The translations under genes were made by a program, and so were the position numbers. A stretch of 20,586 nucleotides of DNA, taken from positions 1 to 20,586 of the IMG/VR virus record IMGVR_UViG_2563366976_000012. One strand, 5' to 3'. The stretch comes from a virus. Lineage: Duplodnaviria; Heunggongvirae; Uroviricota; Caudoviricetes. Under the pieces are notes generated by a model. The model was not told where the DNA came from. It ran no database searches and saw only the letters and a program-made list of their open reading frames with translations. Position 1 is the first letter of the stretch. Every line of letters begins with the position of its first letter. This document shows positions 1,222 to 1,713 of this stretch, in pieces.

Positions 1222-1403
1222 GAATCCTCCCGGCCGGGATAATATTGTGAGTAAAATAAGGAGCGGGCTGAAGTCCGGAAGTTACAGGACAATGGCAGAA
1301 GAGAGACGACAGCCCGCAATTCGAAAAAGACCGCGCAGTTGCGCAGCCTTATGAATTCTGGTTAAAATCCATTCGATTATAAAAATGTATATCTCATGCT
1401 GTT

Positions 1404-1429
1404 GCCCGAACCCACTCGGGCTTTTTTTT
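1404..1429 (+). terminator. Rho-independent terminator-like hairpin (plus strand)
   Basis: GCCCGA-ACCCAC-TCGGGC perfect 6-bp stem followed by T8. Confidence 0.5.
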
Positions 1430-1430
1430 G

Positions 1431-1460
1431 CCCACAAGAAAGCCCCTCCGGAGAGGGGCT
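1431..1460 (-). terminator. Stable hairpin, possible terminator for minus-strand transcripts
   Basis: AGCCCCTC-CGGA-GAGGGGCT perfect 8-bp stem; in minus sense it is followed by UUCUU. Confidence 0.35.
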
Positions 1461-1672
1461 AAAGCCGCGTATCTGTATCATCATGCACATGATGCCGGGT
1501 GCCTCCCGGTGAGTTCAGTATCAGCACCTGAACCCGCACAGAAAGGATAAGGGTCGGTGACAAAACACCAGTTGCTGATTGCCCCTCCGCACAGGGGGAT
1601 TCACCATGCCAGTTTCTTTTAACAAACTCCCCGCAAAACAGACAACTGTCAACCGTCTGAATTGTGAGACAT

Positions 1673-1698
1673 TTAAAAAAAAGCCCGCAAAAGCGAGC
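1673..1698 (-). terminator. Rho-independent terminator just downstream of the tRNA cluster
   Basis: Minus sense reads GCUCGC-UUUU-GCGGGC (6-bp stem with one G-U pair) followed by U8-10. Confidence 0.55.
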
Positions 1699-1713
1699 CG
1701 GGAAAAATAAGTC

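Follow-up and report, generated by a model that had tools for sequence, protein, structure and literature searches.

Background

Convergent pairs of small RNA (sRNA) genes at the moron site of lambdoid prophages were described by Tree et al. 2014 (PMC4104026), and such pairs are also reported for the non-Stx Sakai prophages Sp3, Sp4, Sp9, Sp10, Sp11 and Sp17 (PMC4104026). One member is an anti-sRNA of 51-60 nt, with a conserved 3' part of ~42 nt, closed by a Rho-independent terminator, and a variable 5' part of 14-18 nt (Tree et al. 2014, PMC4104026). Family members lie downstream of PR', between the cargo and the conserved nanS-p ORF, and have a promoter of their own, so that the RNA starts with a primary (triphosphate) 5' end (Tree et al. 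2014). AsxR/AgvB homologues are transcribed in the lysogen, bind Hfq and antagonise FnrS or GcvB through their 5' seed (PMC4104026). Canonical AsxR base-pairs with the terminator loop of FnrS, which lowers the stability of FnrS and relieves the repression of chuS, a haem oxygenase gene (Tree et al. 2014, PMC4104026). Experimental mapping of the 933W RNA gave a primary transcript of 51-60 nt (PMC4104026). For the STnc100 copies of strain EDL933, RNA-seq reads are on record for 11 out of 11, and one copy is confirmed by northern blot (PMC5331693).

The locus and its host prophage

The window, i.e. the whole stretch of 20,586 nucleotides analysed here, is a lambdoid prophage with its late genes on the minus strand. 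The prophage is an E. coli S88-type ExPEC element integrated at argU. Identity to S88 (K1) is 99.3% over positions 1-8307 and 99.9% over positions 1100-2100, where chromosomes of ExPEC-type and human E. coli isolates reach 99.9-100%. Positions 8308-20586 align with S88 (L004) in a patchy fashion, with blocks at 80-99% identity and gaps, the early/regulatory region being mosaic relative to S88 and the late region near-identical. According to RefSeq the S88 element is a complete-looking lambdoid prophage adjoining tRNA-Arg and intD, and no Shiga toxin gene is present in the ~41 kb of it that were retrieved.

The interval under study, positions 1222-1713 (492 bp), lies between minus-strand ileZ/argN/argO-like tRNAs and nanS-p. 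The features of this part of the window are as follows.

1-1221, minus strand: 5' part of nanS-p, start codon 1219-1221, running off the left window end (Pfam DUF1737 8e-16, SASA 1.6e-9)
1222-1360, minus strand: nanS-p leader, structured and highly conserved (dG -45.3, z -3.9, 0/200 shuffles as good)
1339-1368, plus strand: predicted anti-sRNA promoter, TTGCGC 1339-1344, 18-nt spacer, TAAAAT 1363-1368
1374-1429, plus strand: AsxR-family anti-sRNA gene, ~56 nt (Rfam RF02703, 63.0 bits)
1430-1638, minus strand: STnc100/PasD-family sRNA gene (Rfam RF02076, 131.7 bits, E 1e-30)
1639-1671, minus strand: conserved left edge of the sRNA module, TGTC-TCACAATTCAG (1657-1667) -ACGG-TTGACA (1647-1652)
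1672-1681, no strand: unoccupied moron (toxin) slot, junction of the tRNA-terminator T-run and the sRNA module
1675-1699, minus strand: intrinsic terminator of the tRNA cluster, stem 1682-1699, T-run 1675-1681 (dG -11.5, z -3.0)
1714-1790, minus strand: tRNA-Arg(TCT) (ARAGORN)
1804-1880, minus strand: tRNA-Arg(TCG) (ARAGORN)
1888-1963, minus strand: tRNA-Met/Ile2(CAT) (ARAGORN)
4009-4338: Q (Phage_antitermQ)

The minus-strand ORF from 1221 carries a DUF1737 and a SASA esterase domain and is, judged from these domains, the phage sialate O-acetylesterase gene nanS-p; its S88 counterpart is annotated as "SASA family carbohydrate esterase". A preliminary description of this DNA had given the order Q - tRNAs - nanS-p, with about 490 bp of non-coding DNA between the last two. 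All three elements are present, but Q is not adjacent to the tRNAs, as three genes separate them (WYL-domain, 65-aa hypothetical and AraC-type HTH). Likewise the interval contains short mechanical ORFs only (ORF list), and RefSeq annotates zero genes between the last tRNA and the esterase gene of S88, but the interval is not an empty spacer: it holds two sRNA genes recognised by Rfam. The hairpins of the preliminary description, i.e. a minus-strand terminator after the tRNAs, a second hairpin and an oppositely oriented terminator at 1404-1429, are all found. The first has its stem at 1682-1699 and its T-run at 1675-1681, and the third consists of a stem at 1404-1421 followed by T8 at 1422-1429. 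The second has a core stem at 1441-1460 (minus strand) and an outer stem at 1433-1469 (dG -21.1 with the outer stem), but had gone unrecognised as the terminator of a known STnc100/PasD-family sRNA. The promoter-like TTGCGC/TAAAAT pair is present and conserved, with coordinates shifted by one base and a spacer of 18 instead of 17 nt, and the very short plus-strand RNA proposed downstream of it is borne out by homology, with an Rfam AsxR match at 1374-1426 and a 933W homologue in the same place and orientation. A 2.4-kb scan returned 9 terminator-like sites, compared with 2.8 +/- 2.0 expected from shuffles.

Three observations concern the neighbourhood. The AraC-family HTH gene (1992-2705, minus strand) stands directly upstream of the tRNAs, at a position where a Stx2d phage has a DNA methylase. 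The WYL-domain gene (~3316-3960, minus strand), named so in RefSeq and without a Pfam match, sits between Q and a stretch homologous to the Stx2-phage post-Q region that begins near window 3234. Further away, at 9782-9970 and 10648-10833 on the minus strand, there are two tandem isrK + C4 antisense RNA pairs (Rfam 62-81 bits), which suggest that this lambdoid prophage has a P1/P7-type c4/ant immunity module in duplicate; the S88 copies adjoin Rha-family regulator genes, one of them truncated.

The toxin slot

Local alignment with 933W (L005) yields two colinear blocks. Window 1967-1676 corresponds to L005 3117-3409 at 93.5% identity and comprises the tRNAs and the terminator; the cluster at 1714-1963, also matched by the Rfam tRNA model, is the counterpart of 933W ileZ-argN-argO, and the terminator corresponds by homology to what is annotated in 933W (L005 3386-3409) as [quoted passage not shown]. 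Window 1671-1150 corresponds to L005 4745-5261 at 79.3% identity. Between these blocks, at window ~1672-1675, both 933W and the Stx2d phage Stx2_112808 carry 1,335 bp composed of 53 nt with the stx2 promoter, stx2A, stx2B and a 41-nt trailer. In the window, the T-run of the terminator leads straight into ...AAATGTC-TCACAATTCAG-ACGG-TTGACA..., the start of the sRNA module. Neither stxA nor stxB ORFs occur in the interval 1222-1713, and the alignment with 933W reveals no stx promoter or trailer fragment at the junction. The rest of the Stx-phage late backbone is present: Q, the ileZ-argN-argO tRNAs, the terminator, the sRNA pair, nanS-p and the lysis genes.

The slot proper is essentially of zero length (1672-1681), and the locus narrows the position of the toxin slot down to a few bases. 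Some 450 of the 492 bp do not replace stx but belong to the sRNA module, which in Stx phages likewise lies between stxB and nanS-p. The Rfam models, applied to 933W as a positive control, place STnc100 at L005 4778-4983, 75 nt past stx2B, and AsxR at L005 4985-5037 on the opposite strand, 282 nt past stx2B, in agreement with the published spacing of STnc100 (PMC12370729) and AsxR (PMC4104026). The Stx1 phage YYZ-2008 contains the same sRNA pair with an AgvB-type allele and has stx1B upstream of the module. The preliminary description had proposed aligning the interval with stx flanks and had set similarity to them against an ordinary spacer of non-Stx lambdoid phages. The sequences on either side of the stx2 operon (933W and the Stx2d phage) align colinearly with the window, from which the toxin block is missing cleanly; the two alternatives form a false dichotomy, since the interval is both at once.

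The right-hand boundary of the slot is common to Nil3 (a stx-negative O157 phage), PhiR12, E. coli S1-CAM-01-A (L007) and YYZ-2008. PhiR12 lacks the tRNAs, and its module comes after the Q region. In E. coli S1-CAM-01-A the slot (L007 726-1483) is occupied by 758 bp with TerB-family and DUF3927 genes, and E. coli 2018-166 (L006 763-1455) contains two tandem STnc100 modules of different alleles. The left edge of the module is thus kept whatever stands upstream of it, be it stx2B, stx1B, DUF3927, the tRNA terminator or the Q region. As the same boundary serves unrelated cargo and tRNA-less phages, it behaves as a joint between modules that many cargos use, not as the end-point of a deletion, and cargo such as TerB/DUF3927 and the tandem STnc100 modules show modular exchange at this joint.

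The empty junction is widespread. A 201-nt query consisting of tRNA-Arg, terminator, junction and the 5' end of STnc100 (match: at least 80% coverage) is found in 1,041 of 5,426 complete E. coli genomes, many O157:H7 included, among which are strains that have it at 10-14 places. The tRNA-Arg/stx2A junction (933W query) is found in 599 complete genomes. The best full-length phage match to the interval is the stx-negative PhiR12 (83%); over longer spans including the flanks PhiR12 and Nil3 reach 84%, and Stx2 phages come to only 76-79% on the right flank. No near-identical Stx phage with the window allele was recovered, the phage matches of high identity being short pieces only.

These data bear on whether the locus belongs to a stx-negative relative of Stx phages or is a scar of toxin loss, the two options of the preliminary description. 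A scar would imply a Stx-converting ancestor whose stx cassette was deleted and whose flanks were joined; the colinearity of both stx2 flanks and the missing block, a single clean 1,335-bp unit, are what such an event would leave, and repeated stx loss is one possible explanation for esterase-linked sRNAs in chromosomes without stx (Zhu et al., 10.64898/2026.05.13.724894). A clean junction alone looks the same whether the cargo was never inserted or precisely lost. We consider a scar improbable, however: the T-run abuts the module start with nothing left of the stx promoter or the 41 nt behind stxB, the boundary also serves stx1, TerB/DUF3927 cargo and tRNA-less phages, the right flank is closest to stx-negative phages, the empty junction is commoner than the stx2 junction, and among the listed genomes with the window allele none is labelled STEC and several are ExPEC/APEC. 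The stx-negative relative therefore stands, and the scar is left without positive evidence. Our reading, to which we assign a probability of roughly 0.85, is that the interval represents a moron site of the standard kind together with its convergent sRNA pair, in a stx-negative lambdoid prophage of the E. coli S88 type at argU. In the S88-type lineage the slot would never have been filled.

The STnc100/PasD-type RNA

The match to RF02076 covers model positions 1-206 of 206 and exceeds the gathering score of 47. Given this full-length match at 1430-1638, the second hairpin (core stem 1441-1460) is the 3' terminator of the STnc100-type RNA. The same STnc100 position is found in 933W, the Stx2d phage, Nil3, PhiR12 and YYZ-2008. 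The ends of the two sRNA genes abut, with STnc100 (minus strand) ending at 1430 and the anti-sRNA (plus strand) at 1429. From its sequence, the conserved stretch 1639-1671 may contain the promoter of the STnc100-type RNA; its TTGACA (1647-1652) is conserved, but a search for a sigma-70 promoter finds no good -10 element 16-18 nt downstream of it in either allele.

An ATG-initiated ORF (MVNPPVRRG...) starts in the conserved 5' hairpin of this region, and ribosome footprints occur on some EDL933 STnc100 copies, with ribosomal coverage values up to 3.2 (PMC5331693), so that the region might be read as a small-protein gene instead of a regulatory RNA. Among eight homologues, however, the ORF from the conserved ATG varies between 11 and 28 aa and changes frame owing to out-of-frame indels; conservation is limited to its first ~9 codons, the very stretch that forms the conserved RNA hairpin AUCCCCCUGUGCGGAGGGGC. 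Ribosome coverage is, moreover, low for most EDL933 copies (PMC5331693). The small-protein reading was rejected as ORF length is not conserved, and we regard it as extremely improbable.

The AsxR-family anti-sRNA

The anti-sRNA consists of a variable 5' seed (~1374-1389) and a conserved 3' domain with the terminator stem 1404-1421 and U8. The AsxR model matches 1374-1426 over its full length (1-53 of 53) with 63.0 bits, exactly the gathering score of 63; the AgvB model (RF02702) reaches 43.4 bits on the same site, under its threshold of 56. Since MAFFT misaligned the anti-sRNA region between alleles, the alleles were re-extracted and compared directly. The window RNA is identical to 933W AsxR at 48 of 54 nt and differs at nt 8, 13, 15, 16, 27 and 28; its 3' domain is identical to that of the YYZ-2008 allele and 2 nt off 933W. 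The geometry, with a convergent pair between the cargo site and the nanS-p start at 1221, is alike in 933W and YYZ-2008.

The -35 element of the anti-sRNA fits 3 of 6 positions, which is below the threshold of a generic promoter scan and left it unlisted there. Apart from one spacer substitution, the window promoter is identical to those of 933W AsxR and of the AgvB-type gene of YYZ-2008, and its homologues suggest that it is active. The weak -35 and the AsxR score exactly at threshold would both fit a reading in which the hairpins are mere terminators or insulators, a bidirectional terminator pair between the tRNAs and nanS-p, and the window copy yields no functional sRNAs. Such a reading is very improbable in our view. 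Covariance-model matches to two curated sRNA families over their full length, the conservation of the promoter with that of the experimentally mapped AsxR (PMC4104026), the transcription of the EDL933 STnc100 copies (PMC5331693) and the stability of the allele, present in 155 records at >=99% identity, all argue against it and for a pair of sRNA genes.

In complete genomes, a 103-nt query of promoter plus RNA retrieves 182 records with at least 95% identity, which represent the window allele, and 489 records at 80-90%, which represent canonical AsxR. Carriers of the window allele include the K1 meningitis strain S88, an APEC O2:K1:H7 and other human isolates; canonical AsxR occurs in O157, O103, O111 and others. 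The seed-variant AsxR allele in non-STEC strains is the only mildly new point of the locus.

The pairing of both alleles with FnrS was compared. The FnrS query sequence is 100% identical in >5,000 genomes, one of them a carrier of the window allele. For whole molecules, the RNAduplex predictions of AsxR variants versus FnrS were long structures full of loops that did not surpass shuffles (observed-or-better fraction 0.20 and 0.48). The comparison was restricted to the seed versus the terminator loop and is treated as weak evidence. By this crude method with its small energies, the 5' end of canonical AsxR pairs with the loop over 11 bp, interrupted by one bulge, at -7.3 to -8.4 kcal/mol, and the window allele reaches -4.6 to -5.0 kcal/mol, its predicted FnrS pairing being weakened because U8A interrupts the duplex. 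On these predictions the window allele may have a different target or a weaker effect than canonical AsxR. The CACAACA mimic of GcvB targets is absent from the window anti-sRNA. That the window allele is a retargeted anti-sRNA sponging another core sRNA in extraintestinal E. coli is a tentative and, on present data, rather unlikely proposal.

The same U8A substitution creates a perfect TATAAT on the minus strand at 1376-1381, where the canonical allele reads AATAAT; it lies without a good -35 and is probably incidental.

Another RNA allele occupies the anti-sRNA position in Nil3 (L001 ~5016-5130), PhiR12 (L003 ~6157-6270), the Stx2d phage 112808 (L002 ~4248-4360) and strain 2018-166 (L006 ~1456-1570). 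It is oriented opposite to late transcription and has the same TTGCGC -35, but its body and its terminator (GCCCGCG...CGCGGGC) differ. The sequence UUGUUGUUUAUUCC occurs in it, exactly or with slight variation, and it has no Rfam match at E <= 0.01.

The nanS-p leader

The leader comprises the 139 nt before the start codon and is nearly invariant in an alignment of five phages despite much-differing sRNA genes. Its predicted fold includes a terminator-like hairpin at 1329-1348 with U5 at 1324-1328 and an 8-bp long-range stem between 1310-1317 and 1263-1270. The leader may regulate the late transcript in cis. The hairpin 1329-1348, the third terminator-like one, overlaps the -35 of the anti-sRNA.

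Proposed mechanism

In late (minus-strand) order, the tRNA cluster has its own terminator (1682-1699) and is followed by the unoccupied cargo slot (1672-1681), the STnc100/PasD-type sRNA gene (1638-1430) with its own terminator, the ~56-nt AsxR-family gene in tail-to-tail orientation on the plus strand (promoter 1339-1368, start near 1374, terminator 1404-1429) and, last, the structured leader and nanS-p. By analogy with the homologues, for which this is established, both small RNAs would be made in the lysogen independently of prophage induction and would bind Hfq, and the variable 5' end of the anti-sRNA, expressed from the conserved promoter, would pair with and antagonise a core-genome sRNA. 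Upon induction, as expected from lambdoid biology, Q-modified RNA polymerase would ignore the three terminators on the minus strand and continue into nanS-p and the lysis genes, and the anti-sRNA would then be antisense to the late transcript. The distribution and anatomy of the junction suggest that the absence of stx reflects a lineage without cargo at a modular junction and not a recognisable deletion.

According to these comparisons, what lies between the phage tRNAs and nanS-p is neither junk nor scar but a conserved regulatory module. The module of STnc100/PasD and AsxR/AgvB travels with lambdoid prophages, Shiga toxin or not, and different cargos use the same joint. If the seed variant is indeed retargeted, it would represent a new specificity in a known family, and a toxin-less slot would still deliver host-regulating cargo. 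Prophage anti-sRNA regulation, so far studied in EHEC, would extend to extraintestinal pathogens if the ExPEC allele has another target; haem/iron use (chuS) matters in these pathogens.

Comparison with known systems

As a whole the feature is ordinary and common, and both the literature and Rfam already cover it. Compared with the 933W stx2 locus (Q - tRNAs - terminator - stx2AB - nanS-p), the window lacks the 1,335-bp stx2 block, and its Q gene is separated from the tRNAs by WYL, hypothetical and AraC-HTH genes. The layout of the window recurs in the stx-negative phage Nil3 (AM051322), whose tRNA-Arg terminator runs straight into TCACAATTCAG and the STnc100 module, the junction being base-for-base that of the window; Nil3 differs by its RNA allele at the anti-sRNA position.

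The STnc100-type gene is related to STnc100/PasD1-PasD2 of EPEC and to the EcOnc27-type partner in Sp5, the window copy being a full-length model match. Like the STnc100 of 933W it begins ~30 nt past the cargo slot, and relative to other STnc100/PasD members its central region is variable in sequence and length.

AsxR (EcOnc02) of Sp5/933W (RF02703; PMC4104026) occupies the same position, tail-to-tail with a STnc100-type gene and upstream of nanS-p. The 933W RNA and that of the window share orientation (antisense to the late transcript), promoter, 3' domain and terminator. In contrast to AsxR of Stx2 phages, the window gene has no stx2AB upstream and carries six substitutions, four of them in the 5' seed. 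With AgvB (EcOnc01, anti-GcvB, RF02702) the window RNA shares scaffold and genomic position, and the 3' domain of the YYZ-2008 AgvB-type allele (…CAUGCUGUUGCCC…) is identical in the window; unlike AgvB, the window RNA is devoid of the CACAACA mimic and scores below the AgvB gathering threshold.
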